Below are positions 5,636-33,808 of a DNA stretch of 35,772 bases, one piece after another. Origin of the DNA: a phage; assembly GCA_019566835.1 (NCBI GenBank), contig GCA_019566835.1_3045.2, one strand, 5' to 3'. The translations under genes were made by a program, and so were the position numbers. Position 1 is the first letter of the stretch, and each line of letters begins with the position of its first letter. Under the pieces are notes generated by a model, which had not been told where the DNA came from, searched no databases, and was given only the letters and a program-made list of their open reading frames with translations.

Positions 5636-5788
5636 TCAATTAGTTGACTTTGCTATAATATCATCAGACGCTTGATTTGTAAACTGGTCTGTGGTATTTT
5701 CTTCAAAAATTTTTTCTACGAATTCCTTGAACGACTCGCGTTCCTGAGCTACATTATGCTCGATTACCTTTTCAAGATTATGACTCAT
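5636..5788 (-). CDS. Small acidic ORF (50 aa) between arn and asiA
   Basis: ATG overlaps the arn stop (ATGA). Its 3' half contains the asiA early promoter, so coding status is uncertain. Confidence 0.3.
   Translation of the reverse strand: MSHNLEKVIEHNVAQERESFKEFVEKIFEENTTDQFTNQASDDIIAKSTN
5655..5684 (-). promoter_or_regulatory. T4-type early promoter upstream of asiA
   Basis: Minus strand reads GTTTAC, 18-nt spacer, TATTAT, with an AT-rich upstream region. Confidence 0.6.
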
Positions 5789-6063
5789 TCGAAATAATCT
5801 TCAATTTCATAATCATGGACATAAATCATTATAGTTTTTAATACATCATCAATACTTTTTCCTGGAGCTGGAATTACGTAAAAATATCCTGCTTTTGAGA
5901 GGTCTTTATAAGTTCCAATCAAGAAATCATTATTCTCAAGATGTAGTTCTTCAACTAATTCATTAACAATTGAATGGTATAGGTTTGGTAGAAACTTATA
6001 TAGCTTTTCTAGAATATCAATTTTGATTGTGTATTGAACCACGGATTGAGAATCAATAATCAT
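5785..6063 (-). CDS. arn: Anti-restriction nuclease Arn (anti-McrBC)
   Basis: 92-aa acidic ORF in the T4 arn position next to asiA; size matches. Confidence 0.8.
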   Translation of the reverse strand: MIIDSQSVVQYTIKIDILEKLYKFLPNLYHSIVNELVEELHLENNDFLIGTYKDLSKAGYFYVIPAPGKSIDDVLKTIMIYVHDYEIEDYFE

Positions 6064-6349
6064 AGACCTTCCCCTTATGTTTCTGTTTGCGATTAGATTC
6101 TTTAAACGCTTTCTTCTTATCCATATGAACAGAAGCTTTATTAAAATTATGTTTTGCGACTAAATTGTTCATAGTGCTGAATTACCTCTCTCAAACATTT
6201 GCATGTGAATGAAAACTTTTTAGCTACACCACATTCAAATATATGTTCTCTTAAATCGTGTGTATCCGTATAATCCCATCTCAACAATAAAATGCCGTAT
6301 TAGATTTTTATCTTTATCATTGAGAGAATTAAAATAATCAGATTTTGAA

Positions 6350-6646
6350 TTAATTTCCCTGGCCAAATTGAATCACCTTCAGTTGACGTTTTAGCTCTTT
6401 TATCATCTCTTCGTTCATCGCAATATAAAGATCGCGTAAAGCAGGTTTTAGCATGTCATTTATTATAGAACTAAATGGACATACATAATCTTTTCCTACA
6501 AGCTTTTTAGTAAATTCCATATCACAGAACTTAAATCCCGGCTCATTGGTATAAATTCCCCAATTAGTTGACATCATTTTATTAGCGTATTCCAGTGCCT
6601 GGATTTGATTCATAATTCCATCAATTTGAAACTTTTTAATATTCAT
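6350..6646 (-). CDS. Hypothetical protein (arn.x-position ORF)
   Basis: 98-aa ORF, tiled end to end with neighbouring minus-strand genes. Confidence 0.6.
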   Translation of the reverse strand: MNIKKFQIDGIMNQIQALEYANKMMSTNWGIYTNEPGFKFCDMEFTKKLVGKDYVCPFSSIINDMLKPALRDLYIAMNEEMIKELKRQLKVIQFGQGN

Positions 6647-7107
6647 TAGTAAAGGTCCTCAGAGTAAAGTTCTTTTTCACTACCACCGCGTTCAATACGC
6701 ACCTGCCCAGCATAAGTTGCAATAATCATTGCTTCTTCACGTGTCCAATAATTACTATATTGGTCAATAAACCCTTGGTCATCATCACAAACTTGTTGAG
6801 TAACTAACTGTGGTTTAACTATATCTAAAACTTCTGCCATGTCCTTAGAATAATGACGAGCGCCTGGAATAATAAGAGTTCGTCCATCTTTTAATTTAAA
6901 ACGGTTGGCTGCGCAGACAATTCGTCGTTGATACTTTTGATTTTCATCCCAATATGCAGTCTGCCAACAGATTTCAGGAACTTCTTTCAGAATATCTTCT
7001 TCTGTGCATTTATAACCATGCGCTTTAAATTTTTGAACAAGACTCTCCGGAGTCTCACGAGATAAAGGAACATTCAGCATTTTTAAACGATTGATAAATG
7101 GGTTCAT
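6646..7107 (-). CDS. Hypothetical protein (arn.x-position ORF)
   Basis: 153-aa ORF; its stop overlaps the downstream start. Confidence 0.65.
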
Positions 7108-7433
7108 TTAAACCATCCTTTAATACGCTGCCACAAAGTTTTCTGCTGAGTTTTGTTAACACCAATTGAGCGAATAACTGGTTGAGATTCCTGGAATTCT
7201 TTATAATCAGCAAGGTAAATTTCGTAAGCTGCATCCGTAAATGAACTTATCGCTGCCATAAAATTATTGCGAATACCTATTGGAGCATCTTTACTGTCAC
7301 GAATAATCATGTATTTACCAGTCTTAATCTTTACAATAGTTCCAAGATAAGCTCCATGGTACCAAATGTCCCACCCCTCTTGAGTGGGTTCTGCACAACG
7401 ACGAAGTTCATTGATAATTTCTAACTTGTTCAT
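7104..7433 (-). CDS. Hypothetical protein (arn.x-position ORF)
   Basis: 109-aa ORF; 4-nt overlap with the next gene. Confidence 0.65.
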
Positions 7434-7443
7434 TATTTATTCC

Positions 7444-8079
7444 TCACAGTTCAGATGCTACAGTGATTACTGCTTCAATGTTTTCTGCCGAGCGTTTAAT
7501 GTCAAGATACACATTACCGTTTTTAGCGATTTTACAAGACATTCCGATATCAGTAAATTTCTGAATATGATGTTCCATCATTTTGTATCCAAAAATTCGC
7601 ATATTTCCATTATTGTTAATTTCAAAATTGCGAATTCCGTGGGTGCGTTTTTCTAAAATAGCGAGATAGTTACTGCGATAAGTTTCAACCTTTTTAAGAA
7701 CAAATCCATTTTCATCTAAAAGTTTTAACATAAAGTCTTTATCTTCTTCCATATCAGAAGTAATCTCGCGAGCTTTACGAGTTGCTCGTTTTTTCAGCAG
7801 TTCAGGAGCGTTTTCCTGTGCATATAAAGTTGCTGCGTTTGAAATAATATCTTGCGCTTCGCCTGTGATGATTAATCCATCACCTGATTTCTCTACCAGG
7901 CCTTTTTTAATCAATACCCCAATATTACTATTAACTACTGCGTTACCTAAATCTGGATGCACCTCACGAACTTCTGCGGCTGTAATGAAATCTTTCTTAG
8001 CAATAGTAATTAAAATCGCAGCAGTTTTTTCATTCAGAACATCGTTAGAAGCTTTGATGATGTAAGTTACTTTAGACAT
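7444..8079 (-). CDS. motA: Middle transcription activator MotA
   Basis: 211-aa ORF, MSKVTYIIKASNDVLNEKTAAILITIAKKDFITAAEVREV...; length and sequence match T4 MotA. Confidence 0.95.
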   Translation of the reverse strand: MSKVTYIIKASNDVLNEKTAAILITIAKKDFITAAEVREVHPDLGNAVVNSNIGVLIKKGLVEKSGDGLIITGEAQDIISNAATLYAQENAPELLKKRATRKAREITSDMEEDKDFMLKLLDENGFVLKKVETYRSNYLAILEKRTHGIRNFEINNNGNMRIFGYKMMEHHIQKFTDIGMSCKIAKNGNVYLDIKRSAENIEAVITVASEL

Positions 8080-8120
8080 TTTCTAATCTCCGTAATTCTG
8101 TATCAGTAGTTGATAGTTGT

Positions 8121-8150
8121 ATAGTACCACAGTATGCTTTGGTTGTAAAC
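8121..8150 (-). promoter_or_regulatory. T4-type early promoter upstream of motA
   Basis: Minus strand reads GTTTAC, 18 nt, GTGG-TACTAT, with AT-rich UP region 8151-8180. Confidence 0.65.
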
Positions 8151-8174
8151 CGTTTTGTGAAAAAAATTTTTGAA

Positions 8175-8203
8175 ATAAAAAAGGGAGAGCCGAGGCTCTC
8201 CCT
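8175..8203 (-). terminator. Rho-independent terminator
   Basis: Perfect 9-bp GC-rich inverted repeat GGGAGAGCC/GGCTCTCCC followed on the minus strand by a 6-U tract, just downstream of the 49-aa ORF. Confidence 0.7.
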
Positions 8204-8207
8204 AAAA

Positions 8208-8357
8208 TTACTGCATGACTGTGATAACTGTCATAATAACACGTTGAATTCCGAACGCAAGAAGACCTCCTGCTACGGCTGGAACAACACCTAAACCCGC
8301 CAGTAAAATGCTACCGGATACTAATGCAGCGCTTGTAATACCTATGAATGGACTCAT
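8208..8357 (-). CDS. Small hydrophobic membrane peptide (49 aa)
   Basis: MSPFIGITSAALVSGSILLAGLGVVPAVAGGLLAFGIQRVIMTVITVMQ. ATG overlaps the gene 52 stop (ATGA) and SD GAGGAA sits inside the 3' end of gene 52. Confidence 0.5.
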   Translation of the reverse strand: MSPFIGITSAALVSGSILLAGLGVVPAVAGGLLAFGIQRVIMTVITVMQ

Positions 8358-9682: not shown

Positions 9683-9686
9683 AAAT

Positions 9687-11400: not shown

Positions 11401-11428
11401 TTTCTGTTCCTCCGTAGTTGATAGGGTA

Positions 11429-11458
11429 ATAGTACCACGGAAGAACAGTCTTGTAAAC
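11429..11458 (-). promoter_or_regulatory. T4-type early promoter
   Basis: Minus strand reads GTTTAC, 18 nt, GTGG-TACTAT. Confidence 0.6.
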
Positions 11459-11564: not shown

Positions 11565-11647
11565 AATAACCTCATTACAAAAGTAAATGTTAAACAAATT
11601 ACTGGAATACTAATTAACCAAACAAAACACCACCATAGTGAACTCAT
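11561..11647 (-). CDS. Tiny hydrophobic peptide (28 aa), candidate
   Basis: MSSLWWCFVWLISIPVICLTFTFVMRLL; ATGA overlaps at both ends. Confidence 0.25.
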   Translation of the reverse strand: MSSLWWCFVWLISIPVICLTFTFVMRLL

Positions 11648-11907
11648 AGCTCAATCTCAGCGATTTTCATTTCATTACTATTAATAGCCGCTTTAAGACT
11701 ATCTGAAAGAATTACATTCCAGTGGTCATTCATATGACCATTAACTAAGCGTGTAATTTCTTCAGGAGTTGAAAAATAAGGCTGATCAGACTCCCAATGC
11801 GATAATCCTAAGCGAGTATAAATCATGCCTTCATCATCGCTAGAATATTCAACTGACACAAACTCATCAGTTATTTTATGTTTAGCGTAATAAAATTTAA
11901 ATTTCAT
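11644..11907 (-). CDS. Hypothetical protein (87 aa)
   Basis: Start taken at MKFKFYYAKHK with SD GGAGAA, directly downstream of an early promoter. Confidence 0.6.
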   Translation of the reverse strand: MKFKFYYAKHKITDEFVSVEYSSDDEGMIYTRLGLSHWESDQPYFSTPEEITRLVNGHMNDHWNVILSDSLKAAINSNEMKIAEIEL

Positions 11908-11941: not shown

Positions 11942-11971
11942 ATAGTACCACGGTCCTTGTGGCATGTAAAC
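11942..11971 (-). promoter_or_regulatory. T4-type early promoter
   Basis: Minus strand reads GTTTAC, 18 nt, GTGG-TACTAT; overlaps the 3' end of denB. Confidence 0.6.
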
Positions 11972-12587: not shown

Positions 12588-12607
12588 AAAAGGGCCGAAG
12601 CCCTTAT
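12588..12607 (-). terminator. C(UUCG)G tetraloop hairpin, weak terminator or mRNA stabiliser
   Basis: Minus strand reads AAGGGC-UUCG-GCCCUU followed by UUGUUUUAAG. Confidence 0.45.
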
Positions 12608-12837: not shown

Positions 12838-13774
12838 ATTTAAATTGTTCAGTAACGTCTTCAACCACTTCGTATTGGCAGGTACGCATTTTAGCATCAT
12901 TGTAATCAATCGGAATTGATACTACATCACGTGGATGTACTTTAACTTTTACAACTCGACTGGTTGAACTGCCAAAGTGACGAATATAAGATTTAGAACA
13001 TACATGCAGACCACGAGAACAAGTTTGTGTATCATCGTCATTCACACGAGTACGCGGCATTTTAACTACTTTACCAGGACTGTTATCAAAGGTGTTTGAG
13101 TGACAGTCAAAGTAGTTGTCACGAACTACTTTCCAAGCATAGAAGTAACCATCTTCGGTGATTTCAATATCGTTTGCTACCAAGAAATCAAAGAGTCGAG
13201 ATACCGCTTTTTGGCTTGGGTTTTCCAGCAGATTTTCCAAGAACGGAAAATAAAATTCAAAATTTTCGCCTTTTTCCATCGAGTCAAGAATACGATCAAC
13301 CAGACCAGACCGTAATTCGATATTTTGATAGAACAAGCTTCCGCCTTCAATTCGAACATCACCGGAAATATATTTTTCAACAGCGCGACGAACATTAATT
13401 TTTTGTGCAGCTTCTTCCAGCTTATCCGCTACAAGCAGATTAAGAATTTCCTGGAAGTTTGAATGAGTATTAGGAGTTGCGTTATAAGTTACACCGTCAA
13501 CAGTAATTGAAATGAATTTTTTAGATGCATTCCAAATAATGTCAGATTTAGCAACTGGAGCAATAACTTCATCGCTATTAACTTTAACTGTAATATCACC
13601 GCTAATAGTAACTTTAGGGCGTTTAGCTTCTTCAGCATTTTTCAAAACACGACGAATTGTGTCAACCGATACACCTTGCCAATCAGCCAATTCCTGTTGG
13701 GTGTAATTACCACTTGAATACAGTTTAACAATTTCAGCTTGTTCGTTTTTGGTCAGGCATTTAATATTGTACAT
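12836..13774 (-). CDS. rIIB: rIIB protein
   Basis: 312-aa ORF, MYNIKCLTKNEQAEIVKLYSSGNYTQQELADWQGVSVDTIRRVL...; T4 rIIB length and position. Confidence 0.9.
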   Translation of the reverse strand: MYNIKCLTKNEQAEIVKLYSSGNYTQQELADWQGVSVDTIRRVLKNAEEAKRPKVTISGDITVKVNSDEVIAPVAKSDIIWNASKKFISITVDGVTYNATPNTHSNFQEILNLLVADKLEEAAQKINVRRAVEKYISGDVRIEGGSLFYQNIELRSGLVDRILDSMEKGENFEFYFPFLENLLENPSQKAVSRLFDFLVANDIEITEDGYFYAWKVVRDNYFDCHSNTFDNSPGKVVKMPRTRVNDDDTQTCSRGLHVCSKSYIRHFGSSTSRVVKVKVHPRDVVSIPIDYNDAKMRTCQYEVVEDVTEQFK

Positions 13775-13785: not shown

Positions 13786-15963
13786 TTAGGCCGCAAGGGC
13801 CTTCATAGTTTTAGCGATTTGAGAAACTTCATCATCACTTAAAGAGTTGCGATATCCGATGAAGTCGGAAACAATACGGAATTTCTTGGTAAACTCAGCA
13901 ACCATTTTATCACTGTTTTTTGAAGCATTATTTGATAATACATCAAAAAGATTAGTTACTGTCCAGATGTCATGACCGATGGTATCTTTTCCACCATTAA
14001 AATATACACCGCGCAATGAACTAACTATATTAGCGAGTCGTGTATATTCTTCAGAAACTTCATCTGTACTGAAGTACTTCATCATAAAATCTAGTTCAGG
14101 ATACTTGATAATTTTATCAATATATCGTTGAGCTGAACTTGAATAACCTACATACTTATCATAATCTACATCATCAAAAGCATCTACATATAAATCACGC
14201 AAAGCTTCAAAAATACATTGGCACTGACCGAGTTCTTTTACCTTTTTCTGTAAAAGCGGACGAATAACATAAAATTCATTAATGCCAATAAGATTAGCCA
14301 TACGAATCAAAATATTCATAGATGGATGACAAAGTGATGTAGTACCATCCATAGAGAAAATATCAGAACGATGCATATACGCTACATAACCAGTAATTTC
14401 ATCTGCTTCTGACGTAAGTGTAAATAATTCCTCTTTTTCCCAACGCCCATCTTTAATTTCAAACTTAAATGCTGTAGCAGCTTTAGGACGAGGAGCTTTA
14501 CTTTTAACTACCTTTGGAATATAGCTTTTAACTAAAGCTTCAATTTCTGACAAATAATGAATGTTAACTTCATCACTTTCAAACATTGCCATAATATCAG
14601 GTAGTAAATCAATCTGCGATTCTACTTCTGGATTAATAAACAGAAGACGCTCATTATGATGAATATTTAAGGTGTTATTAAATTCGCTATCATCTAATGC
14701 ACGTGCTAATCCACGGACAATATTAACGCGATTTTTAATATTATCAATAACAATATTAATTTTTGTCGTATTAATACCAAACAGACGATAGCTTGATGCA
14801 ACGGCTGAAGTTTCATGACTTTGCTTAATGCGTTTCAGTCGAGGGTCAAGATTTACTTCATACACAACTCCTGCATTGCATAACTTACTGTCAGGTTCAA
14901 ACATGCTCTGCATCTTTTTATATGACAGATTTTTAGTCGTGAATTTGACCGAATTACTAATCATATAATCTCGAGCAGAATACCCCATCTTCATTAATTC
15001 GCGATATGTATGACGAGGAGATGTAGATTCTTTAAATCGTTTTACATCTTCATTAAATGCTTTCTCACTGAGTTCTTTAACTCGTTCAATAATATTTTTA
15101 CGAGTGCGATCATCTAGTGAAAGAGCCTCGCGAGATGGAGCAATATCAAGTGAACCCATTGGAAACTTAATGTAATTCACTTCATTGCGAATGCTTAGCC
15201 AGTTACGCTCTCTAATAACACCATCGATAGGATAAACAATACCACCATAGATAGCATATAATCCACCACGATCAGGCCAGTATCTTTCTGGATTTACACC
15301 GTAATAGTCATCAAAATCCGGAAAATAATCAATTTCGCGGTCAAGACCATTAATGATAGCCAAATCTTTGAACGGTCGCATGATATAAGAAACTTCATAA
15401 GCAAAGTTTCTAAAGTCTTTTTCTTCAACTGGAACTACGATTTCAATACCAGTTTTATCATCTGGACCCATTTCTTTCACGAATGTAGGTTTAATTTGTG
15501 GACCATCGCCATCCATGTAAGCTACATAACCACGAATTTCACCTTTATGATACGAAGTAATACTAAATGTATCAGTATAACTAAACGGAGATTTAGAACC
15601 TAAACCAAATCCGCCAATGAAATCGTTAGATTCAGCCTTAGATGAACTGAAGTATGAATTATACAAACCAGGAGAATTATCATCACCCTGAATATCAAAA
15701 TCACTCATACCCGGACCAAAATCTCGGCAAACAAATCGTGGATCTAAACGTCCAGGAACTTGAATGATAAATTTTTCAGGATTTCCATTGAGAGCATGGG
15801 CATCAATCATGTTGGTAATCAATTCACGGACTACTGCGCGAATCTTGTTTGTATACAAATCAGACGACAGAATTTTAAATACTTTAGGAGATGCTGTGAT
15901 GCTAAATGCTTTCGATTTAGAACCATTACCAAGAATTGTTTCTTTTTCAGTGGTGATAATCAT
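13786..15963 (-). CDS. rIIA: rIIA protein
   Basis: 725-aa ORF adjacent to rIIB; T4 rIIA length and position. Confidence 0.9.
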
Positions 15964-16202: not shown

Positions 16203-16232
16203 ATTATACCACATCCTTGTGGTAAAGTAAAC
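16203..16232 (-). promoter_or_regulatory. T4-type early promoter for the rIIA.1-rIIA-rIIB unit
   Basis: Minus strand reads GTTTAC, 18 nt, GTGG-TATAAT; the -35 element overlaps the gene 39 stop codon. Confidence 0.65.
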
Positions 16233-18049
16233 TACTGGCTCATCCATTCTTTACGAAGGTCAGCATTATCTCCCATGAGCATTTCAAAAAGCTCTTTCCA
16301 GTTCTCAGGAAGTTTAACAACATCATATACTGGATTTTGAATCATTTCACGATATTCAGATTTTTCCAAAGAGCCAAGTCCTTTAATATAACGGATGCTA
16401 TGTTTAGGTAGAGCATCTTTGGCACTCTCATATTCAGCGACTGTATAAAACCATTCTTGTTTTTTACCGACCTGAGCGATGATTACAGGAGTTTTGACAA
16501 AGCGAATTCGTCCTTGCTCAAACAATTCTGGCCAATTACTAAAAAATCCGAGCAGAGAAGGATAAATGCTTCCTAGACCATCATGGTCAGCATCAGTCAT
16601 AATAGCAATATTGCGATAATTCATGTTTTCAGCTTTTTCACCAAGAACTAATCCAGTGATTGCGCAAATATCAAATAGTTCTTTGTTTTTAAGCATATCT
16701 GCATAAGACATACCCCAACTGTTGAGAACTTTACCACGCAATGGATAACCACCATGAAGTTCTTTATCACGAACATCAATAAGATATCCGATAGCAGAAT
16801 CACCCTCAGTCAAGAAAAGAGTAGTATCAGCATCTTTACCGCACAGATTAGCTTTAATATGTTTATGAACCTTTGCCTTAGAAGCCTTTTTAGCTGCTTT
16901 AGTTTCAGCTGCTTTTTCTGCTGCCAATTTACGAGCTAGTGCAGCTTCAATAATTGGCATTAAAATTGCTTCATTATTTAAAATAGCGCGTGAAATCTTT
17001 TTAGCGTCAAGTTGAATATGACTACGGATTTCACCAAATGGAGAAGTCAAACGCTCTTTAGTTTGAGAATCAAATCGCATGTTTTTCATATCACGAACAA
17101 ACATAACGATAGTCAAACATTCTTTAACGCGTGCTTTAGTTACATCAATTTTGAACTTACGTTTGATTTGTGGAATAAGGTCTTCACAAATATCATCCAT
17201 AACACAGTCAATGTGATGGCCACCATTCTTAGTATGAATGTTATTGACGTATGTTAATTGACGAAATCCATCCGGTGAACGACCAACCGCAATAGAACAA
17301 TTTTCTTGTTCTTGAACAATAGCATGTTCATCATACTGTAGTGCATATTTCTTAAAATTGCCCTGAACCTTTTTACCATTAAAGGTAAATTGAATATCAG
17401 GATAAACAACAGCAAGTGTCTGGAGACGATCTAGTGTAATGTCAAGATAAACTTGGGACAGCTCATTAGTTTCAAATGACATAAAATCTGGAATGAAAGT
17501 AACACGAGTTCCTTTCCATTTTCCAGGAATAGTTTCCCAGGATTTATTTTCCATGCCATTTGAACAACGAACTACAATATTATTTTGACCATCGCCAGTT
17601 TCACCGACAAACATCACAGAAAAAATGTTAGTTAAACTAGAACCAACACCATTCATACCACCGGTGACACGTTCTTTATCATCACCAAAGTTACCACCCG
17701 CTTTTGGAATAGTCCAAGCAGCAACTGGACCAGGAATTTCTTCACCGGTAGGTGTTTTAACCATCGCTTGTGGAATACCACGACCGTTATCTTCAACTGT
17801 TACTTGATTGTTTTTAATAGTAACATTAATTTTATTTGCGAATTTAAACTTAGTACGAATACCTTCATCTACTGAGTTATCGATAATTTCATCAATAAGC
17901 TTAACAAGACCAGGTACATACTGAACACTTTCCCATTTACCAAACAGAAAGCGCTCATGCATTTCATTAGCAGAAGAGCCAATGTACATGCCACTACGCT
18001 TTTTGATATGTTCAATATCGCTCAGAATTTTAATTTCATTCTTAATCAT
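16232..18049 (-). CDS. 39: DNA topoisomerase II large subunit (GyrB-like) gp39, uninterrupted
   Basis: 605 aa from the ATG at 18049 (SD GAGGATAAG; the ORF-track start at 18052 is GTG). N-terminal GHKL ATPase motifs (DEIIDNSVDEG, EDNGRGIP) and a C-terminal Toprim-like region sit in one frame. Confidence 0.92.
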   Translation of the reverse strand: MIKNEIKILSDIEHIKKRSGMYIGSSANEMHERFLFGKWESVQYVPGLVKLIDEIIDNSVDEGIRTKFKFANKINVTIKNNQVTVEDNGRGIPQAMVKTPTGEEIPGPVAAWTIPKAGGNFGDDKERVTGGMNGVGSSLTNIFSVMFVGETGDGQNNIVVRCSNGMENKSWETIPGKWKGTRVTFIPDFMSFETNELSQVYLDITLDRLQTLAVVYPDIQFTFNGKKVQGNFKKYALQYDEHAIVQEQENCSIAVGRSPDGFRQLTYVNNIHTKNGGHHIDCVMDDICEDLIPQIKRKFKIDVTKARVKECLTIVMFVRDMKNMRFDSQTKERLTSPFGEIRSHIQLDAKKISRAILNNEAILMPIIEAALARKLAAEKAAETKAAKKASKAKVHKHIKANLCGKDADTTLFLTEGDSAIGYLIDVRDKELHGGYPLRGKVLNSWGMSYADMLKNKELFDICAITGLVLGEKAENMNYRNIAIMTDADHDGLGSIYPSLLGFFSNWPELFEQGRIRFVKTPVIIAQVGKKQEWFYTVAEYESAKDALPKHSIRYIKGLGSLEKSEYREMIQNPVYDVVKLPENWKELFEMLMGDNADLRKEWMSQ

Positions 18050-18076
18050 CACTTATCCTCGTTTGGTTTCGGGAAT

Positions 18077-19591: not shown

Positions 19592-19861
19592 TTAATTGAA
19601 CAGTGGAGCGATGCGTTTCAGAAGAGTAGCAGCACCTTTAGCGAATTTTACATCATGAAAAACAGTTTCTTCTTCTGTAACAACTCGAACTTTAATATTT
19701 TCACAATCCCAATTTTTACGAACAATCTTCAAAAGCTGCAGTAAATCTTTACATTCAGCAATATCGATAACACATCCACGAGAATCTTCCATTATCGCAC
19801 GATAACCGTAAGCCATACCATAATCATTGAAAGATTGCTCGATGATAATTAAGTTTTCCAT
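19592..19861 (-). CDS. Hypothetical protein (89 aa)
   Basis: Start taken at MENLIIIEQ with SD GGAGAATAAA. Confidence 0.6.
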   Translation of the reverse strand: MENLIIIEQSFNDYGMAYGYRAIMEDSRGCVIDIAECKDLLQLLKIVRKNWDCENIKVRVVTEEETVFHDVKFAKGAATLLKRIAPLFN

Positions 19862-19885: not shown

Positions 19886-19928
19886 ATCAGTAGTTGATAT
19901 TGATATAGTACCATAATCAACTACTGAT
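19886..19928 (-). promoter_or_regulatory. Promoter-like element with extended -10 inside a 13-bp inverted repeat
   Basis: Minus strand reads TGG-TACTAT with no GTTTAC at -35; the -10 is bracketed by ATCAGTAGTTGAT and ATCAACTACTGAT. Confidence 0.35.
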
Positions 19929-19968
19929 GTATATAGTTTTATGAAAAAAATTTAAACTTTATGCAAAT

Positions 19969-20388
19969 TTATGCTAAAGCTGCTTCGCACCATTTTTTAA
20001 TTTGGAATTCAGGAACTACCATGAACTGGCCTGCAAAAACAATATTGTAGAGCTTGACACCATCTTCTACCCAACGGTCCGAAATAAAACCAGCGACTTG
20101 ATTCGTTGTCCATGGAGTTCCATCTGTTGCCGCCGCAATTGTGAATTTATGGTCTTTTACAACTAAAACTGAAGAACAAAGTTTCCATTTAAATGCGCTT
20201 TCTTCTGGCTCAATGAACTGACTTGAGACATAACCAATGTTACCATCAGCGTCACGAACTTTAACCTCGTTACGACCAAAAACTGGATCACTTACAGAAA
20301 GAACTTCAACCAGCTTTCCTGCAACTTTAGAACGAGAAGCAACGGATACATATACGTAATCACCAGTAGAGAGATTTGCAATATTCAT
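19969..20388 (-). CDS. Hypothetical protein, paralog family member A (139 aa)
   Basis: SD AAGGA. Shares the N-terminal SRSK-AG-LVEV block and the C-terminal GF-TD-W-EDG-KLYNIVF module with the next gene. Confidence 0.7.
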   Translation of the reverse strand: MNIANLSTGDYVYVSVASRSKVAGKLVEVLSVSDPVFGRNEVKVRDADGNIGYVSSQFIEPEESAFKWKLCSSVLVVKDHKFTIAAATDGTPWTTNQVAGFISDRWVEDGVKLYNIVFAGQFMVVPEFQIKKWCEAALA

Positions 20389-20397: not shown

Positions 20398-20871
20398 TTA
20401 AGCTTTACGAGGAGAAGCATAACGAGTGATTTCAGATTCTTCAACAACCCGGAAGTCACCTAAGAATACGATATTGTAGAGCTTTTCACCATCTTCAACC
20501 CATTGGTCTGTGATGAAGCCACACATCCTATCAGTTTTACTTGGACCAGCGAAATCATCAATATAATCGAATTCTTCATCAGTTACAAATTCAACGCCTT
20601 TACACAACGCCCATTTAAATTGTGTATTAGACTCAGTGGATTCAACTTCTTCAACAGAAGCAAAATGAGAGCTAACACGAGTTTCCAGAAATTTAGGACT
20701 TACGTAAGCGTACTGAGTTTCAGTTTTTCCAGAACCAGGAATGATTCGAACTTTAACTTCTTTAACACGACCAGTACCATTAGTACGAAGTCCTACCACT
20801 TCAACTAGACGACCTGCAGCTTTAGAACGAGATGCAGACGATACACGCTTAATTTCACCGATAGTAATCAT
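20398..20871 (-). CDS. Hypothetical protein, paralog family member B (157 aa)
   Basis: Start taken at MITIGEIKRV, because the longer in-frame ATG lies inside the upstream promoter. Same conserved N- and C-terminal blocks as member A. Confidence 0.7.
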   Translation of the reverse strand: MITIGEIKRVSSASRSKAAGRLVEVVGLRTNGTGRVKEVKVRIIPGSGKTETQYAYVSPKFLETRVSSHFASVEEVESTESNTQFKWALCKGVEFVTDEEFDYIDDFAGPSKTDRMCGFITDQWVEDGEKLYNIVFLGDFRVVEESEITRYASPRKA

Positions 20872-20914
20872 AATTTTTCTCTCTTTGTTGTTAAGATTTA
20901 TACTCCGCAGGACC

Positions 20915-20944
20915 ATTATACTCTGGTCCCAAGAGTTTGTAAAC
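20915..20944 (-). promoter_or_regulatory. T4-type early promoter
   Basis: Minus strand reads GTTTAC, 18 nt, TATAAT, with a second GAGTATAAAT about 20 nt downstream. Confidence 0.55.
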
Positions 20945-21895: not shown

Positions 21896-21922
21896 TTTAT
21901 TATCCTCAGTAGCTATGGTGTT

Positions 21923-21952
21923 ATAATACCACAACTAACCGAGGAAGTAAAC
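21923..21952 (-). promoter_or_regulatory. T4-type early promoter
   Basis: Minus strand reads GTTTAC, 18 nt, GTGG-TATTAT. Confidence 0.6.
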
Positions 21953-25795: not shown

Positions 25796-25825
25796 ACTAT
25801 AACATTTTTACCTTGGCTTGTAAAC
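25796..25825 (-). promoter_or_regulatory. T4-type early promoter upstream of srd
   Basis: Minus strand reads GTTTAC, 18 nt, TATAGT. Confidence 0.55.
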
Positions 25826-25837: not shown

Positions 25838-25864
25838 AATGCTTCAAAAATTTCATGGTATAAT
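25838..25864 (+). promoter_or_regulatory. Consensus MotA-dependent middle promoter on the plus strand, antisense to modA
   Basis: Plus strand reads AATGCTTCA (MotA box), 12 nt, TGG-TATAAT (extended -10), pointing into the 3' end of modA. Confidence 0.4.
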
Positions 25865-26484: not shown

Positions 26485-27104
26485 TCAACTACCTCAATAT
26501 CATAAACTTTAAATGTTCCAAATGAATCGTGTAATTTTTCTTTTGAAATAGAAGTTATTCTATACTTTCCAATTGGAATCATCCATTCTTGTTCATGCAC
26601 AATCATCATTAAGTTATCAGTACGCTCTGAATCTAGCCCATCAGTATCTTCATACGTGTACTTAAACTCAGTATTAGGAGAAGAAAGTATAATATCGCTG
26701 ATATGGTCAGAGTAATTAAAAGCTTTATCAGTTTTTAAACGAAGTATTGTTTCAGTGAAATATTCAGCATAAGAAAAAGAACACGCTGTATGCAAACTAG
26801 TAGTAAATGAATCTACCCTGTTCGTTGAAAACACTTCTCCAACTTGTAAATCTTTAATAAGTTCTTTTGTCGATTTTGATATACCACGATATAACTGATA
26901 AGGCGATTTAGTTAAATGCTTTTTAATGATTTTATTCAACTGTCTGTGAAGAGCTTCATTCTTTTTGGCTTCCATACATTGCCAAAGAACAGACTGCTCA
27001 AAGTCAGTAAATTTTTCACAGACTTTTTTATACATATCATATTGAAAATCAACGCTTTCAGCTTTTATAGATAACTGTTCAACATCTGCAGGATTAATAA
27101 TCAT
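26481..27104 (-). CDS. modB: ADP-ribosyltransferase ModB
   Basis: 207-aa ORF with LYRG, STN and EQEWMIP motifs; paralog of the adjacent gene. Confidence 0.65.
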   Translation of the reverse strand: MIINPADVEQLSIKAESVDFQYDMYKKVCEKFTDFEQSVLWQCMEAKKNEALHRQLNKIIKKHLTKSPYQLYRGISKSTKELIKDLQVGEVFSTNRVDSFTTSLHTACSFSYAEYFTETILRLKTDKAFNYSDHISDIILSSPNTEFKYTYEDTDGLDSERTDNLMMIVHEQEWMIPIGKYRITSISKEKLHDSFGTFKVYDIEVVE

Positions 27105-27130
27105 GATAGCCTCCGTATACTTCAGAAGCT

Positions 27131-27160
27131 ATCATATCATCGTTAGAAAGGAAAGTAAAC
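27131..27160 (-). promoter_or_regulatory. T4-type early promoter upstream of modB
   Basis: Minus strand reads GTTTAC, 18 nt, TATGAT, then SD GGAGG. Confidence 0.55.
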
Positions 27161-29232: not shown

Positions 29233-29262
29233 ATTATACCACACTCATTTTGATATGTAAAC
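29233..29262 (-). promoter_or_regulatory. T4-type early promoter
   Basis: Minus strand reads GTTTAC, 18 nt, GTGG-TATAAT. Confidence 0.6.
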
Positions 29263-29264: not shown

Positions 29265-29298
29265 CAAAAACGAAAAAAGGAACCCCGAAGGATTCCTT
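29265..29298 (-). terminator. Rho-independent terminator downstream of soc
   Basis: Minus strand reads AAGGAAUCC-UUCG-GGGUUCCUU (9-bp stem, UUCG loop) followed by UUUUUUCGUUUUU. Confidence 0.7.
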
Positions 29299-29577: not shown

Positions 29578-29787
29578 TTAAATTACATGATTATTTATAA
29601 TAAATTCTCGCGGAACGTTAAAATATCCGATTTTAGTTAATATAACAACATCACCGTTAATAATTACCGGAGAATAATCTTCTGGAGTGTTAAATTTCCA
29701 ATGGGATCTAATATTATATCCATCAGAACCAAATGCTCGAGTAGCCGGTCTCCCGGCTTTTTGCCACGCGTAGAAATCAAATTTCAT
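29578..29787 (-). CDS. Hypothetical protein (69 aa; soc.1-type ORF)
   Basis: Small ORF between soc and gene 56. Confidence 0.55.
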   Translation of the reverse strand: MKFDFYAWQKAGRPATRAFGSDGYNIRSHWKFNTPEDYSPVIINGDVVILTKIGYFNVPREFIINNHVI

Positions 29788-29978
29788 TTTGAATGCTCTA
29801 TAATTAATTTTAAAGCTTCTTCACTGACAAAAATTTCGTCAGGACCTTCTATAACTTCAACCATACGAAGTTGATTAGTTAAGAGCTCACATACGAGCTC
29901 CTTGTTATAATCTTTAAATAGCTGGTCAATACGTTTCTTATGGGCTTTCTTAAGCTGACGCTTATTTAAACGAGCCAT
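29784..29978 (-). CDS. Hypothetical protein (64 aa; soc.2-type ORF)
   Basis: Small basic ORF overlapping both neighbours by 1-4 nt. Confidence 0.55.
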   Translation of the reverse strand: MARLNKRQLKKAHKKRIDQLFKDYNKELVCELLTNQLRMVEVIEGPDEIFVSEEALKLIIEHSK

Positions 29979-30496
29979 TAATAACCTCGGTCTTGACGAG
30001 CGAAGTTTTCAGCATTTTTCAGGTAATAAAGTTTAAAGATTTCTTCAGCCGACATTCCAAGAGCAATAAATTTATTCATGAAAAAGTGAAATTGGTCAAT
30101 CAGTTCAAATTTAATTTCAAGCTGATCTTCAGGAGATAAGTCTTGAATTTTCTTGGATTGCATTTCAGAATAACGTTTCTTCCAAGGTTTCCATACAGCA
30201 GAAGCTTCTTTTTCACCATTACTCATACCACCAAGAGAAGTATATAGCTCGCGAGTTTCGTCTGCGATATAATCGTCTTGGTTTCGCAGCCAAGCAAGAA
30301 CTTCTCCTGCAGTTTCAAGTGAATCAGGATGACGATTTGTTTCTGGTTTATCATTAGCCAAACGAATCTGTAAATGCCGCTGCATGTCAAGCATAACCTG
30401 CAATGGGTCAATACTGTGCATAATATACTCAGCATATGCACGATTTGCTTTATCAACACCTTCGATCAAATGAGCACATTCATTAAAGTGAGCCAT
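29978..30496 (-). CDS. 56: dCTP pyrophosphatase gp56 (MazG-like)
   Basis: Start taken at MAHFNECAHL with SD AAAGGAAAAATA, giving 172 aa; the ORF-track N-terminal extension is hydrophobic and lacks an SD. Confidence 0.8.
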   Translation of the reverse strand: MAHFNECAHLIEGVDKANRAYAEYIMHSIDPLQVMLDMQRHLQIRLANDKPETNRHPDSLETAGEVLAWLRNQDDYIADETRELYTSLGGMSNGEKEASAVWKPWKKRYSEMQSKKIQDLSPEDQLEIKFELIDQFHFFMNKFIALGMSAEEIFKLYYLKNAENFARQDRGY

Positions 30497-30530
30497 TATT
30501 TTTCCTTTCAATTCATGGGTTAGTAGATTA

Positions 30531-30556
30531 ATTATACAATAAATATATAAAGCAAT
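30531..30556 (-). promoter_or_regulatory. MotA-dependent middle promoter for gene 56
   Basis: Minus strand reads ATTGCTTTA (perfect MotA box), 11 nt, TATAAT, about 30 nt upstream of the gene 56 start. Confidence 0.55.
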
Positions 30557-30567
30557 AAGGAGGACAT

Positions 30568-30768
30568 ATGGTACAAAAATTAATGGCACTTGTTAATGCC
30601 ATAAAAGGTAATAAAAAACGTATAGCTTTTACTATTTCTGCTATGGTAGGAATTTTACTCTGGAACTTTATTTTATCACCAATTGCAATTGCGCATGGTG
30701 TTAATATTCCAGTAGTTACTCTTGATACATTTGTAGATTTAGCATTTGCTTTAGTTGGGTTGATTTAA
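30568..30768 (+). CDS. Plus-strand small membrane protein (66 aa) in the 56-61 gap
   Basis: Consensus SD AAGGAGG 4 nt before the ATG; hydrophobic product; fills the gap exactly, with its stop overlapping the gene 61 stop. Confidence 0.5.
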   Translation: MVQKLMALVNAIKGNKKRIAFTISAMVGILLWNFILSPIAIAHGVNIPVVTLDTFVDLAFALVGLI

Positions 30769-31793
30769 ATCTTAGCATATTTAGATAGCCGCATTTTAGC
30801 CATCAACCCCTGGGCAATATTATTTTTCATATATTCCATAATTTGTTCAGGGGTTGCACCTTCCTTTCTAATCATATCATTAACATCTTTAGATTTCCAG
30901 GGAGATTTATCCCAAAACATAATCCTTTCTCCTGCATCAACTAATTTAGTCATTCGTTTGATAGTGTCAGGGTGACGAGGTTCATTATCTAAAACCCACA
31001 CTCGTCTATCTTTAAATGGAACAACTTCTAGGTCTAATTGACCACCCGTAATAGCTATACCATTTTCAATAAAAAGTGAATCTATAGGTCCTTCTAGAAC
31101 ATATACATCACCATCTTTAACTCGTTCAACACCGTAAATTTTTGTTGCCTCAGGATAAGCTTTAATGGTGATATATTTTTGAGGAGCATCTTTCTTTAAT
31201 GCACGTCCTTGAAAAGACTCAGCTTTTCCATTAGCATTATAAATTGGAATAACAAGACGAGGCTCAGAAATTTCCTTTTTGTATGTTCCCGGTGCTATAC
31301 TATTAACTAATTTAGGCCATTCGGTTGTAAACCAAAGATATTTCCATTTATCCTTTGGAATACAACGAGCTTTTACATATTTTATAATTGGATGGTCTTC
31401 CGCCAGTTTATCTAATCTAACACATGACGGAAGAGATTTAATTATTTTCTTCTCAGGTTGCTTAGGAAGTTCTTTAGGTTTTTCTACTGGACGACTTTTA
31501 CCTTTTTCTTTTCTTATTTCAAAGATATACTCACGATATAAATCAGGTTCAAACTCCTTTAAATATATTCCGATTGGTGCATGATAATTACAGTTATAAC
31601 AATGAATATTTCCTTCATTATTATCACCATAATACCATCCACGAGCTTTATTCTGGTCGGTTTTTGAATCTCCACAAACTGGACATCTAAACCGCAATTT
31701 AAAAGTTGAACTATTATTTACTTGTGTGAATTTAGGTAAATGAGCTAATGCACGGTATGCAAACTCATTATCAATCCAAGGTATTGATGACAT
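30765..31793 (-). CDS. 61: DNA primase gp61
   Basis: 342-aa ORF with N-terminal zinc ribbon (CPVCGDSK...CYNCNYHAP) and a Toprim-like core; T4 gene 61 length. Confidence 0.93.
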   Translation of the reverse strand: MSSIPWIDNEFAYRALAHLPKFTQVNNSSTFKLRFRCPVCGDSKTDQNKARGWYYGDNNEGNIHCYNCNYHAPIGIYLKEFEPDLYREYIFEIRKEKGKSRPVEKPKELPKQPEKKIIKSLPSCVRLDKLAEDHPIIKYVKARCIPKDKWKYLWFTTEWPKLVNSIAPGTYKKEISEPRLVIPIYNANGKAESFQGRALKKDAPQKYITIKAYPEATKIYGVERVKDGDVYVLEGPIDSLFIENGIAITGGQLDLEVVPFKDRRVWVLDNEPRHPDTIKRMTKLVDAGERIMFWDKSPWKSKDVNDMIRKEGATPEQIMEYMKNNIAQGLMAKMRLSKYAKI

Positions 31794-31795
31794 TT

Positions 31796-31960
31796 TTACT
31801 CTTCTTTTTCTTTAGATTCCTCTTTTTTCTTTTTAGGAATCTGCTCAGGACCTTTATTTACTACAGCGCCTGACGTTGTTCCAGTAGAGATATTTTCAGG
31901 ATTACCACCTGAATCTCCAGCGACCATATCTTCTTTAATAAATTCTTTATATGTTTTCAT
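31796..31960 (-). CDS. Small hypothetical protein (54 aa; 61.1 position)
   Basis: MKTYKEFIKEDMVAGDSGGNPENISTGTTSGAVVNKGPEQIPKKKKEESKEKEE; stop 2 nt before the gene 61 ATG. Confidence 0.45.
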   Translation of the reverse strand: MKTYKEFIKEDMVAGDSGGNPENISTGTTSGAVVNKGPEQIPKKKKEESKEKEE

Positions 31961-32005
31961 ATTAACCTCTATTCATAAAAGCATTAAAAATTTGGTCATC
32001 AATAG
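31958..32005. repeat. Direct repeat copy 1 (gene-junction cassette, about 48 bp)
   Basis: CATATTAACCTCTATTCATAAAAGCATTAAAAATTTGGTCATCAATAGA is about 92 percent identical to the copy at 32316-32363. Confidence 0.8.
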
Positions 32006-32318
32006 ATGGCGCAGTAATATTTTCTGCATCATTTAGTAAATCATTAATTTCATCAGATAGCATAACACATGTACCTTTATTTCCTGTAATTGTTACTGCA
32101 CAATTACGAACGTTTTCTTTATCAAATTTTAGGTTAATATTTTCGTAGTGAAAATCCTTTAATGCCGAATATATCTTTAAAATGAAATTGTCTTTTACTA
32201 CAATAAACCCAACCTCACTATTAAAACGCGGTTCATGGAAACTGTAATAAACCTTTTCATCTATAAAATCGTATGAAATTTTTTCCATTTTTAAATATGA
32301 AAATTCAGAACTATACAT
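31962..32318 (-). CDS. Hypothetical protein (118 aa; 61.x position)
   Basis: C-terminal 14 aa SIDDQIFNAFMNRG are shared with the upstream 210-aa gene. Confidence 0.6.
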   Translation of the reverse strand: MYSSEFSYLKMEKISYDFIDEKVYYSFHEPRFNSEVGFIVVKDNFILKIYSALKDFHYENINLKFDKENVRNCAVTITGNKGTCVMLSDEINDLLNDAENITAPSIDDQIFNAFMNRG

Positions 32319-32363
32319 ATTAACCTTTATTCATAAAAGCATTAAAAATTTGATCGTCAATAG
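32316..32363. repeat. Direct repeat copy 2 (gene-junction cassette)
   Basis: CATATTAACCTTTATTCATAAAAGCATTAAAAATTTGATCGTCAATAGA. Confidence 0.8.
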
Positions 32364-32952
32364 AAACTTTTACTTTAGGCTGTTCTTCAAACGGTAATTC
32401 ATATCCACATATTACAATTTTGTGATCGATACCAAAATACACAGAAGCAATATTATTAATATTATTTTCAGTGAAATCTAAATCAACATCAATATCTTTT
32501 TGACTAACGCTCAAAGGATAATTAATACGAATAATTCGATTATCTTTAACAAAGATTCCACCGACATACTCTGTGCTGCGTTTAAAGTTTACACGTTTCC
32601 TAAATGAAAAATATTCAGGTTCTTTATGGGCTCGACTCATAGGGCTTAAAGTGTATTCCGAATATGAAATATCAAATCCTACACCTTCAATATGAGCCAA
32701 AGTGTCATGATTAAACCAATTATAATCGTATGCCAAATCCATTAAATTGTAATATGTGAAAGGCACCGGATTAACATCATATGTTGTACCTTTAAAATCT
32801 GCCCAGGCAACGATTTCGTTATCTTTAACAATTACAAAAATTGTGCCAATAAGATATCCACGGTTATTTTCATCAGGCGTTATATTATAACATTGTGCAT
32901 CAGGAAATTTACCGTATTTAAACGGTGGATTTTTGTGCATATAATAAATCAT
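32320..32952 (-). CDS. Hypothetical protein (210 aa; 61.2-position ORF)
   Basis: ORF ending SIDDQIFNAFMNKG. Confidence 0.7.
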   Translation of the reverse strand: MIYYMHKNPPFKYGKFPDAQCYNITPDENNRGYLIGTIFVIVKDNEIVAWADFKGTTYDVNPVPFTYYNLMDLAYDYNWFNHDTLAHIEGVGFDISYSEYTLSPMSRAHKEPEYFSFRKRVNFKRSTEYVGGIFVKDNRIIRINYPLSVSQKDIDVDLDFTENNINNIASVYFGIDHKIVICGYELPFEEQPKVKVSIDDQIFNAFMNKG

Positions 32953-32953
32953 A

Positions 32954-33247
32954 TTATTCGCCTGTGATTTCGGTTACGATATTTTTGTTATTAAAGTTTT
33001 TATCGCAATACAGAACATAATTATACTGCATTACACCACCAGACTTAAGTTGTTTTTGCACTTCAGCTTTCATTTCAGGACGATCGCGCTCAACGATATT
33101 CATAATATCCGCTTCAATTTGAGTTTCAACTTCAGTCTGATCTGCAGTCATAGACCATTCACACAAATCTTTATCATATCCTGCCATAGCAGGCTGAGTA
33201 GCACAAGAAGCCAAAGTAAAAATTGTAGCAAAAATAAATTTTTTCAT
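32954..33247 (-). CDS. sp: Spackle periplasmic protein Sp
   Basis: 97-aa ORF with a cleavable signal peptide (MKKFIFATIFTLASCATQPAMA); T4 sp size and 61.3 position; SD GAGGAG. Confidence 0.7.
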   Translation of the reverse strand: MKKFIFATIFTLASCATQPAMAGYDKDLCEWSMTADQTEVETQIEADIMNIVERDRPEMKAEVQKQLKSGGVMQYNYVLYCDKNFNNKNIVTEITGE

Positions 33248-33275
33248 GATAATCTCCTCAGTAGTTTATGTTTAT

Positions 33276-33305
33276 ATAGTATCTCAATTTCCAACAAAAG
33301 TAAAC
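33276..33305 (-). promoter_or_regulatory. T4-type early promoter upstream of sp
   Basis: Minus strand reads GTTTAC, 18 nt, TACTAT. Confidence 0.6.
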
Positions 33306-33307
33306 AG

Positions 33308-33565
33308 CTATTTTAAAACTTCTGCGTAATCACATGTTACAAACTGTTTCTCTAGCTTAACGATTTTACGAAAATACCTTTTATACTGACGAATCTGCCT
33401 CTTCGTAGGACGTACAGCAAACTTAATAAATTCCACTCGACCAAATGGAGGACTTTCTTCTGCTGGAATATCTAACACCAATTCCCACGTATCCGCAATA
33501 AGTGCTTTGAATTGCGTATTTTTCCTGACGTTATACGGAGTAGGTTTAAATAAAACAATATGCAT
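33308..33565 (-). CDS. Hypothetical protein (85 aa; 61.4 position)
   Basis: Start taken at MHIVLFKP with SD GAGGAT, which removes the overlap with dmd. Confidence 0.6.
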   Translation of the reverse strand: MHIVLFKPTPYNVRKNTQFKALIADTWELVLDIPAEESPPFGRVEFIKFAVRPTKRQIRQYKRYFRKIVKLEKQFVTCDYAEVLK

Positions 33566-33566
33566 A

Positions 33567-33749
33567 TTATCCTCGGCAATCCACTTCGCACACTTTCTTG
33601 TCATCAATGAAAGCTTTAACTAATGCTTTATTAACTTCAGCATATTGAGTAGTAGCCCATTGAACGTCATCTTTCATCATTGTGATTTCTTTAGTAAACA
33701 TGCTTTCATTCTTAAACCACCCCATAAAAACTACTTTTACCAATTCCAT
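33567..33749 (-). CDS. dmd: Dmd antitoxin (inhibitor of RnlA/LsoA)
   Basis: 60-aa ORF with SD GAGGAG behind an early promoter, between the 61.x ORFs and gene 41; matches T4 Dmd in length and position. Confidence 0.7.
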   Translation of the reverse strand: MELVKVVFMGWFKNESMFTKEITMMKDDVQWATTQYAEVNKALVKAFIDDKKVCEVDCRG

Positions 33750-33778
33750 AACAATCTCCTCATTTAACCAACAAGACT

Positions 33779-33808
33779 ACTATACCATAGTCTTGTCAGC
33801 TTGTAAAC
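33779..33808 (-). promoter_or_regulatory. T4-type early promoter upstream of dmd
   Basis: Minus strand reads GTTTAC, 18 nt, TATAGT; the -10 sits inside a 9-bp inverted repeat (ACAAGACTA/TAGTCTTGT) and the -35 overlaps the gene 41 stop. Confidence 0.6.

Follow-up and report, generated by a model that had tools for sequence, protein, structure and literature searches.

We analyzed a 35,772-nucleotide stretch of phage DNA (NCBI GenBank assembly GCA_019566835.1, contig GCA_019566835.1_3045.2; hereafter the window), in which a series of promoter-like elements punctuates a long block of minus-strand genes. Megablast identified the window as a Tequatrovirus (T4-like coliphage): hundreds of T-even genomes matched it, and segments were approximately 97-98% identical to phages including GiZh, KMB22, and G4507. 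Genes were named by alignment to T4 (AF158101) and from the GiZh annotation. The plus-strand part (90-5350) carries gp37, gp38, and holin t, and from 5351 onward all genes lie on the minus strand. The first part of this block contains asiA, arn, motA, gene 52, ndd, denB, rIIB, rIIA, rIIA.1, and an unsplit gene for the topoisomerase large subunit; goF, cef, motB, motB.2, dexA, dda, srd, modA, and modB occupy the middle, and mrh, soc, 56, 61, sp, dmd, 41, and 40 the end.

A spaced promoter motif in the minus-strand block

An initial annotation of the window had listed at least twelve early promoters, and each of the 12 coordinates carried an exact match to GTTTAC-N18-TAnnnT on the minus strand (see the table). 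This motif was observed 12 times against an expectation of 0.51 (standard deviation = 0.70, maximum of 3 in 100 dinucleotide-preserving shuffles), with no match on the plus strand of the window. Because GTTTAC by itself was barely enriched (27 observed, 18.5 expected) and scans of the window with generic sigma-70 consensus sequences gave no excess over shuffled sequence (59 matches against 62.6 expected, and 84 against 71.0), the signal resides in the combination of the elements at this spacing. A Shine-Dalgarno sequence and the ATG of an open reading frame (ORF) of 37-251 codons followed every site, with the ATG 25-43 nt after the -10 element. The distance of 20-40 nt given initially was accurate for 10 of the 12 sites and was slightly exceeded at motA (41 nt) and motB (43 nt).

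A position-weight matrix built from the 12 listed sites detected a 13th at 19905-19934 on the minus strand, so that "at least twelve" proved well chosen. The 12 sites scored 29-58 and the additional site 36.8, compared with 7.0 for the next best match and a null maximum of 17. This site had been overlooked because its -35 element reads ATATAC; it is otherwise typical, with the same A/T tract, the +1 region ATCAACTAC, and a GGAG ribosome-binding site, and it is also present in T4 and GiZh. A relaxed scan allowing one mismatch in GTTTAC and a gap of 17-19 nt returned background only (35 matches, 33 expected), and a scan that dropped GTTTAC and required TGn, a -10, a weak -35, and a Shine-Dalgarno sequence with ATG recovered only the known sites. 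Since the two relaxed scans added nothing to the matrix scan, we took the set to comprise 13 promoters. A search of Rfam detected no family at the gathering score anywhere in the window.

GTTTAC is exact at all 12 listed sites and is followed by A or T in every case, and the 13th site has ATATACA. The 18-nt spacer of the initial annotation applies when the -35 is written as GTTTAC and becomes the canonical 17 bp once it is read as TTTAC(A/T); measured from TTTACW to TAnnnT, it is 17 bp at all 13 sites. Spacers were also said usually to end in GTGG, which is exact at only six of the 12; the conserved feature is instead TG at -15/-14, an extended -10 (TGn) found in 10 of the listed sites and 11 of the 13 overall, and missing at 20915 and 33276. 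Nine of the listed sites have a strict TAYWAT -10, the others having TATAGT (two) or TATGAT (one), and a purine lies about 7 nt downstream of the -10, where the start is expected, at 12 of the 13 sites. The 20 nt upstream contain 60-90% A+T, in agreement with the AT-rich sequence described earlier, and this tract is weakest where it overlaps coding sequence, at 5655 and 16203 (both 60%). AAAAAGTT stands immediately 5' of GTTTAC at three sites.

Overlap of the -35 with the stop codon of the upstream gene (TAGTTTAC), which had been ascribed to several sites, occurs at three of the 12. At 16203 and 33779, the TAG stop codons of the topoisomerase large-subunit gene and of gene 41, respectively, end in the G of the -35; at 20915, the -35 shares bases with the TAG that closes the upstream ORF. 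The description of the promoters as near-identical was overstated: their 30-nt cores have a mean pairwise identity of 0.58 (range 0.43-0.73), and the variable spacer has a mean of 0.32, near background. Similarity among the promoters is confined to the functional elements.

Table. Predicted early promoters, promoter-spanning hairpins, and intrinsic terminators of the window, with positional counterparts in T4 and RB69
Feature	Position	Strand	Description	T4 counterpart	RB69 counterpart
asiA promoter	5655..5684	-	GTTTACA, TGA, TATTAT; ATG 31 nt downstream	161182-161211	Pe:160217
motA promoter	8121..8150	-	GTTTACA, GTGG, TACTAT; ATG 41 nt downstream; Shine-Dalgarno GGAG	163644-163673	
ndd.4 promoter	11429..11458	-	GTTTACA, GTGG, TACTAT; ATG 28 nt downstream	166778-166807	
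Promoter of 87-amino-acid ORF (11644-11907), then ndd.6, ndd.5	11942..11971	-	GTTTACA, GTGG, TACTAT; ATG 34 nt downstream	167057-167086 (ndd.6)	
rIIA.1 promoter	16203..16232	-	GTTTACT, GTGG, TATAAT; ATG 25 nt downstream	2429-2458	
13th candidate promoter, 89-amino-acid ORF upstream of cef	19905..19934	-	ATATACA, ATGG, TACTAT; ATG 43 nt downstream		Pe:6863 (prediction of Nolan et al.), -35 ATGTAC
motB promoter	20915..20944	-	GTTTACA, no TGn (AGAG), TATAAT; ATG 43 nt downstream; GGAG in leader	7186-7215	Pe:8387
motB.2 promoter	21923..21952	-	GTTTACT, GTGG, TATTAT; ATG 27 nt downstream	8189-8218	Pe:7443
srd promoter	25796..25825	-	GTTTACA, ATGT, TATAGT; ATG 35 nt downstream	11822-11851	Pe:12088
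modB promoter	27131..27160	-	GTTTACT, ATGA, TATGAT; ATG 26 nt downstream	13157-13186 (identical)	Pe:13466
mrh.2 promoter	29233..29262	-	GTTTACA, GTGG, TATAAT; ATG 26 nt downstream	15259-15288	Pe:14950
sp promoter	33276..33305	-	GTTTACT, no TGn (GAGA), TACTAT; ATG 28 nt downstream	20080-20109	Pe:19020
dmd promoter	33779..33808	-	GTTTACA, ATGG, TATAGT; ATG 29 nt downstream	20583-20612	Pe:20971, directly after gene 41
ndd.4 hairpin	11404..11448	-	15 bp; -22.7 kcal/mol; z = -4.31; 0/200 shuffles as good		
19905-site hairpin	19886..19928	-	spans -10; -20.2 kcal/mol; z = -5.25; 0/200 shuffles		
motB hairpin	20902..20936	-	flanks -10 (GGGACC...GGUCC); z = -2.12; 7/200 shuffles; weak		
motB.2 hairpin	21903..21945	-	17 bp; -23.7 kcal/mol; z = -5.99; 0/200 shuffles		
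modB hairpin	27096..27141	-	z = -3.98; 0/200 shuffles		
dmd hairpin	33766..33801	-	around -10, CAAGACUA-UGGUA-UAGUCUUG extended; z = -4.04; 0/200 shuffles		
Intrinsic terminator 5' of motA promoter	8182..8203	-	9 bp, then TTTTTT; z = -2.81		
Intrinsic terminator between soc and mrh.2 promoter	29277..29298	-	9 bp, UUCG loop, T-run		

Assignment to the T4 early-promoter class

Based on their sequences, the 12 sites together with 19905-19934 are very probably T4-type early promoters (Pe) of a Tequatrovirus, as predicted in the initial annotation. T4 early promoters have reportedly been compiled by Liebig and Rueger in 1989, by Wilkens and Rueger in 1994, and by Miller and coworkers in 2003. Taken together, the elements found here (A/T-rich sequence upstream, G-TTTACW, a 17-bp spacer, TGn, and TA(Y)(W)AT) are those of the consensus published for the early promoters of T4, which has GTTTAC at -36 to -31, A-rich sequence at -40 to -44, GT-rich sequence 5' of -12, and T-12/A-11/T-7 (Nolan et al. 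2006, PMC1524935). The same promoters have been described as "uber" promoters combining UP, -35, TGn, and -10 elements (Hinton 2010, PMC2988021), and a consensus of TTTACW-N17-TAYWAT was given for PST and T4 (Comeau et al. 2014, PMC4122927).

Alignment placed a T4 ortholog before the same gene for each of the 12 sites, so that in this T4-like phage every site has an orthologous T4 site before a known early gene. The window and T4 regions were 88-99% identical over 130 nt for 11 of the 12 sites and 77% for the motB region, and the differences were confined to the spacer and the degenerate positions of the -10, with none in GTTTAC, TG, or TA...T. The T4 GenBank record AF158101 itself annotates no promoter features. 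For RB69 we used the 58 early promoters predicted independently by Nolan et al. with a hidden Markov model; 10 of the 13 sites had positional counterparts, located before asiA, motA, cef, motB, motB.2, srd, modB, mrh.2, sp, and the gene after 41. In 12 relatives from IMG/VR whose MotA proteins were 52-100% identical, the GTTTAC, TGn, -10, and GGAG Shine-Dalgarno upstream of motA were kept while the sequence and length (17 or 18) of the spacer varied, and the promoter elements before motB.2 were likewise kept in four genera while the spacer diverged.

Published observations in T4 are consistent with this assignment. Transcripts of motA and asiA were seen at 1 min of infection, and the early proteins include ModA, ModB, MotB, and Dmd (PMC9697503). 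The T4 motB promoter gave a primer-extension stop at 3 min, and motB mRNA is cleaved by RegB (Durand et al. 2006, PMC1702504). The motB.2 site fits P8.1, a T4 promoter used in a mutational analysis of Alt stimulation and named for its 8.1 kb map position (Hinton 2010, PMC2988021), the match being drawn from the map-position name.

Several points weigh against the assignment. Two sites (20915 and 33276) lack TGn, the 13th, whose -35 (ATATAC) is poor, may be weak, and the 5655 site lies inside a coding region, wholly within the asiA.1 reading frame (5636-5788), with a less A/T-rich upstream tract. In addition, each T4 ortholog is in part only presumed to be a listed, mapped early promoter.

Two other explanations of the sites were considered. 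In a genome with 65% A+T, where a generic sigma-70 scan performs no better than on shuffled sequence, a chance A/T-rich pattern might be suspected. The odds of this are negligible, since none of the 100 shuffles reached the 12 matches observed against 0.51 expected, all sites lie on one strand just upstream of ORF starts, and all are kept in T4 and most in RB69; the motif statistics, the T4 orthology, and the placement before ORFs refute it. The sites could also be middle promoters dependent on MotA and AsiA, which share the sigma-70 -10 and carry TGn in about half of cases (PMC2988021). However, middle promoters have, instead of a -35, a MotA box, (a/t)(a/t)(a/t)TGCTTtA, at about -30 and 12 +/- 1 bp from the -10 (PMC2988021); none of the 13 sites has such a box and all have a -35 at 17 bp, which makes this explanation highly improbable.

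The MotA-box pattern did occur elsewhere in the window, with four matches against 1.2 expected. Two of these on the minus strand, at 13904-13927 (inside rIIA, for rIIB) and 30531-30554 (before gene 56), match the middle promoters of T4 rIIB and gene 56. The intergenic region of modA and srd, which also contains the UP region of the srd promoter, has on its antisense (plus) strand, at 25840-25864, a TGCTTCA that resembles a MotA box and, after it, TGGTATAAT; this may be a chance match. In the diverged ones among the 12 relatives compared upstream of motA, approximately 60-90 nt before the gene, the promoter spacer carries GCTT(T/C)AA, which resembles the MotA-box core TGCTTtA. This element is too near the -10 for a middle promoter and is absent from the window and T4; it could be a candidate site of MotA autoregulation.

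As T4-type early promoters, the 13 sites would be bound by E. coli sigma-70 RNA polymerase, unmodified or Alt-modified, right after DNA injection and without any phage-made protein. The alpha C-terminal domains would touch the upstream A/T-rich tract, sigma region 4 would bind the -35 TTTAC(A/T) with the conserved G just before it, region 3 would bind TGn, and region 2 would bind TA(Y)(W)AT. Transcription would start about 7 nt past the -10 and run leftwards, and injected Alt may stimulate some of the promoters. The transcripts would carry a leader of 18-36 nt and a strong GGAG/GAGG ribosome-binding site ahead of host-takeover genes, namely asiA, motA, ndd.x, motB, motB.2, srd, modB, mrh.2, sp, and dmd. 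This outline draws on published work on T4 and E. coli (PMC2988021, PMC3014915) for how the polymerase contacts the DNA, for when and where transcription starts, for stimulation by Alt, and for the cutting of GGAG leaders by RegB.

GGAG was present in nine of the 13 leaders and GGAU in two more, mostly as the Shine-Dalgarno sequence. GGAG/GGAU is the target motif of RegB, an early-mRNA endonuclease by which the motB, motA, modB, and motB.2 leaders are cut (Durand et al. 2006, PMC1702504). The motA leader GGAGATTAGAA is near the strong RegB site consensus GGAGRAYARAA.

The early-promoter class is already known biology, and the assignment is correct but ordinary. It amounts to the rediscovery, from raw sequence, of one of the best-studied promoter sets, that of T4-like phages, and its main value lies in correct annotation of 13 early transcription units in the host-takeover block.

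Hairpins spanning the promoters

We folded the minus-strand RNA across each promoter and compared it with 200 shuffles. Six of the 13 promoters were inside strong RNA hairpins, two had terminator hairpins directly upstream, and five had neither. The promoter-spanning hairpins are built from a 5' arm in the spacer between -35 and -10, or in the -10 itself, and a 3' arm in the leader. At ndd.4 the promoter spacer (CUGUUCUUCCGUGGU) pairs with leader sequence that includes the Shine-Dalgarno (ACUACGGAGGAACAG), and at motB.2 the spacer (UCCUCGGU.UAGUUGUGGU) does so likewise (ACCAUAGCUACUGAGGA). At modB the -10 hexamer and discriminator pair with the Shine-Dalgarno (GGAGG) and the AUG. Only at these three sites does the 3' arm contain the Shine-Dalgarno, and only at modB does it also contain the AUG.

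The hairpin at 19905 has its 5' arm in the spacer and its 3' arm over +1 to +13. The inverted repeats at dmd, 19905, and motB are centred on the -10 and do not involve the ribosome-binding site. A palindrome of the dmd type, TAGGACTA-TGnTA-TAGTCCTA, was found in at least nine of the 58 predicted RB69 early promoters. These -10-centred palindromes are candidates for an RNA stem or for a DNA operator of some factor.

For ndd.4, motB.2, and modB, the predicted unpaired probability of the initiation region rose from 0.16-0.32 in read-through RNA to 0.63-0.77 in promoter-initiated RNA (from 0.24 to 0.77 at ndd.4 and from 0.16 to 0.67 at modB). The soc gene served as a positive control; the expected hairpin was present, and the contrast between long and short RNA was small (0.38 vs 0.44), as it varies with the precise position of the late start. 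A late promoter (TATAAATA) stands before soc at 29592-29599 on the minus strand, and a hairpin, CAUGUAAUU/AAUUACAUG, covers the soc start codon.

The motB.2 pairing is kept by differing sequences across phages: TCCTCGGT/ACTGAGGA in Tequatrovirus, TTCTCCTCTGGTT/AACCAGAGGAGAA in RB69 (Mosigvirus), TTCTCCTCATG/CATGAGGAGAA in Dhakavirus, and TATGATGACCTC/GGAGGTCATCATG in Kosakonia phage 305 (Kanagawavirus). In the modB pairing of RB69, AGGC/GUCU replaces AGC/GCU, a compensating change, and a stable structure in modB RNA has been mentioned previously (Durand et al. 2006, PMC1702504). Among 52 predicted RB69 promoters, five had a duplex between the spacer and their own leader beyond the 1st percentile of chimeric pairings, compared with 0.5 expected (permutation p = 0.007). 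Across the RB69 early promoters as a class, no occlusion effect was detected, with accessibility of 0.496 with the own and 0.493 with chimeric upstream sequence (p = 0.57). Predicted occlusion of the ribosome-binding site is thus a property of a subset of promoters, not of the whole class. The ndd.4-type spacer CTGTTCTTCCGTGGTACTAT recurs at an unrelated RB69 locus (Pe:73274) without a complementary leader, which suggests that promoter modules move between loci independently of leaders.

Two intrinsic terminators and one terminator-like hairpin were also found. The hairpin at 8182-8203, before the motA promoter, has an equivalent in two diverged relatives (L015 and L016). For the one at 29277-29298, GiZh has a terminator annotated at the equivalent place, and the RB69 arrangement is the same. 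At 12590-12605 (both strands), between rIIB and denB, a GC-rich hairpin with T-runs on either side has the appearance of a bidirectional terminator, and GiZh terminators are annotated at the equivalent place.

Possible roles as translational switch and mobile cassettes, and comparison with known systems

The hairpins at ndd.4, motB.2, and modB allow an additional function that is compatible with the early-promoter assignment, in which the promoter DNA encodes a 5' arm that masks its own Shine-Dalgarno or AUG. Read-through RNA from upstream would form the hairpin and give little translation, RNA started at the local promoter would lack the 5' arm and be translated, and synthesis of the ndd.4, motB.2, and modB proteins would thereby be tied to the brief activity of their own early promoters. 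The hairpin z-scores of -4.0 to -6.0, with none of 200 shuffles as good, point in this direction, as do the opening of the initiation region in promoter-initiated RNA, the motB.2 pairing built from different sequences in four genera, the compensated modB pairing in RB69, and the RB69 subset described above. Moreover, the three hairpins have neither a U-tract after them nor a terminator before them, and the promoters that stand behind true terminators (motA and mrh.2) have no such hairpins. Against it, the effect is not class-wide in RB69, the ndd.4-type spacer occurs at Pe:73274 without a complementary leader, and modB RNA is cut by RegB in vivo despite its structure (Durand et al., PMC1702504). 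Promoter stem-loops have also been read as terminators or attenuators, which was shown for one of them (Arbiol et al. 2010, PMC2839356). On balance, we place the masking function slightly below an even chance. The further step, that a subset of early promoters (ndd.4, motB.2, and modB here, and about 10% of those in RB69) doubles as an arm hiding the ribosome-binding site such that only promoter-born transcripts are translated, is put forward tentatively, as something the sequences may indicate.

A second addition to the early-promoter assignment is that the promoter-plus-leader units also act as mobile cassettes of the PeSL type, that is, as conserved patches where homologous recombination swaps or deletes small ORFs. 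PeSLs (promoter-early stem-loop cassettes of T4-type phages) have stem-loops that lie upstream of, between, or over the -35 and -10 boxes, and they have been read as terminators or attenuators and as recombination linkers (PMC2839356; PMC4122927). Such cassettes were reported for the PST/T4 pair, with the ndd.4/ndd.5 locus given as an example (Comeau et al. 2014, PMC4122927), and have an experimental basis in RB49/phi1 (Arbiol et al. 2010, PMC2839356). In the window, the units at 11942 and 19905 have a common promoter, leader, and ribosome-binding site (TTTCATAAAA...TGGTACTATA...TATCAACT...TTGGAGAATAAAATG) before unrelated ORFs, which are not paralogs; mobile cassettes would account for this arrangement. 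The 8121 site also resembles the T4 ndd.6 promoter region (82% over 98 nt). However, the two indels relative to T4 that abut promoters (11677-11901 and 19654-19853) are internal ORF deletions in T4 with no cassette exchange, the other eight of approximately 10 indels lie away from promoters, and the mean identity between cassettes is 45% over 80 nt. We consider a role as mobile cassettes less likely than not for the units of this window.

The two T4 deletions fall in ORFs of 87 and 89 codons (11644-11907 and 19592-19861, minus strand) that are intact in the window and remnants in T4. In the 87-codon ORF, the deletion is of 225 nt, lies between short repeats of ATGAAA, and leaves T4 with a mini-ORF of eight codons ahead of ndd.6; in the 89-codon ORF, it is of approximately 200 nt. 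The topoisomerase II large subunit is encoded at 16232-18052 (minus strand) by a single uninterrupted gene of 606 codons; the gene 39/60 split, the gene 60 translational-bypass region, and the mobA insertion are features of T4 and are all absent from the window.

The hairpin observation is of modest value. It offers a simple possible way to confine toxic early proteins such as ModB and MotB.2 to the first minutes of infection and bears on how early gene expression is switched off. If the hairpins do act as a switch, translation of these host-takeover proteins would end when the early promoters shut off, despite continuing read-through or middle-mode transcription. In the accessible literature, our searches found no paper describing occlusion at early promoters, and the reviews there give late promoters only; the novelty of early-promoter occlusion is uncertain.

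Compared with the early promoters of T4, the sites of the window have the same elements, the same downstream genes, and the same genomic positions. There is no difference of substance: the window comes from another isolate, in which a few spacer bases are substituted and one -10 differs (TATTAT vs TACTAT at motB.2). Strong sigma-70 promoters such as T7 A1 and lambda PL (comparators in PMC2988021) use the same polymerase, four recognition elements, and a canonical 17-bp spacer. In contrast to these, the window sites have TTTACA rather than TTGACA, so that the third base of the -35 is T and not G; they also keep a G at -36 and show additional conservation around +1 (CTATCAACTAC in several sites).

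The sites resemble PeSLs in the succession of an A/T tract, an early promoter, a stem-loop at the -35/-10, and a Shine-Dalgarno sequence with ATG, the consensus being exact in nine of the 12 sites. Unlike published PeSLs, three of the hairpins in the window lack a U-tract and take the ribosome-binding site as their 3' arm. In T4, the translation initiation regions of genes e, soc, 49, and I-TevI are occluded by hairpins, and late promoters relieve this occlusion (Uzan & Miller 2010, PMC3014915). As in these genes, the Shine-Dalgarno or AUG of ndd.4, motB.2, and modB pairs with a segment 5' of the proximal start. The T4 genes, however, use late promoters (TATAAATA), which delay translation, whereas the proximal promoter in the window is early and would restrict translation to the first minutes of infection.

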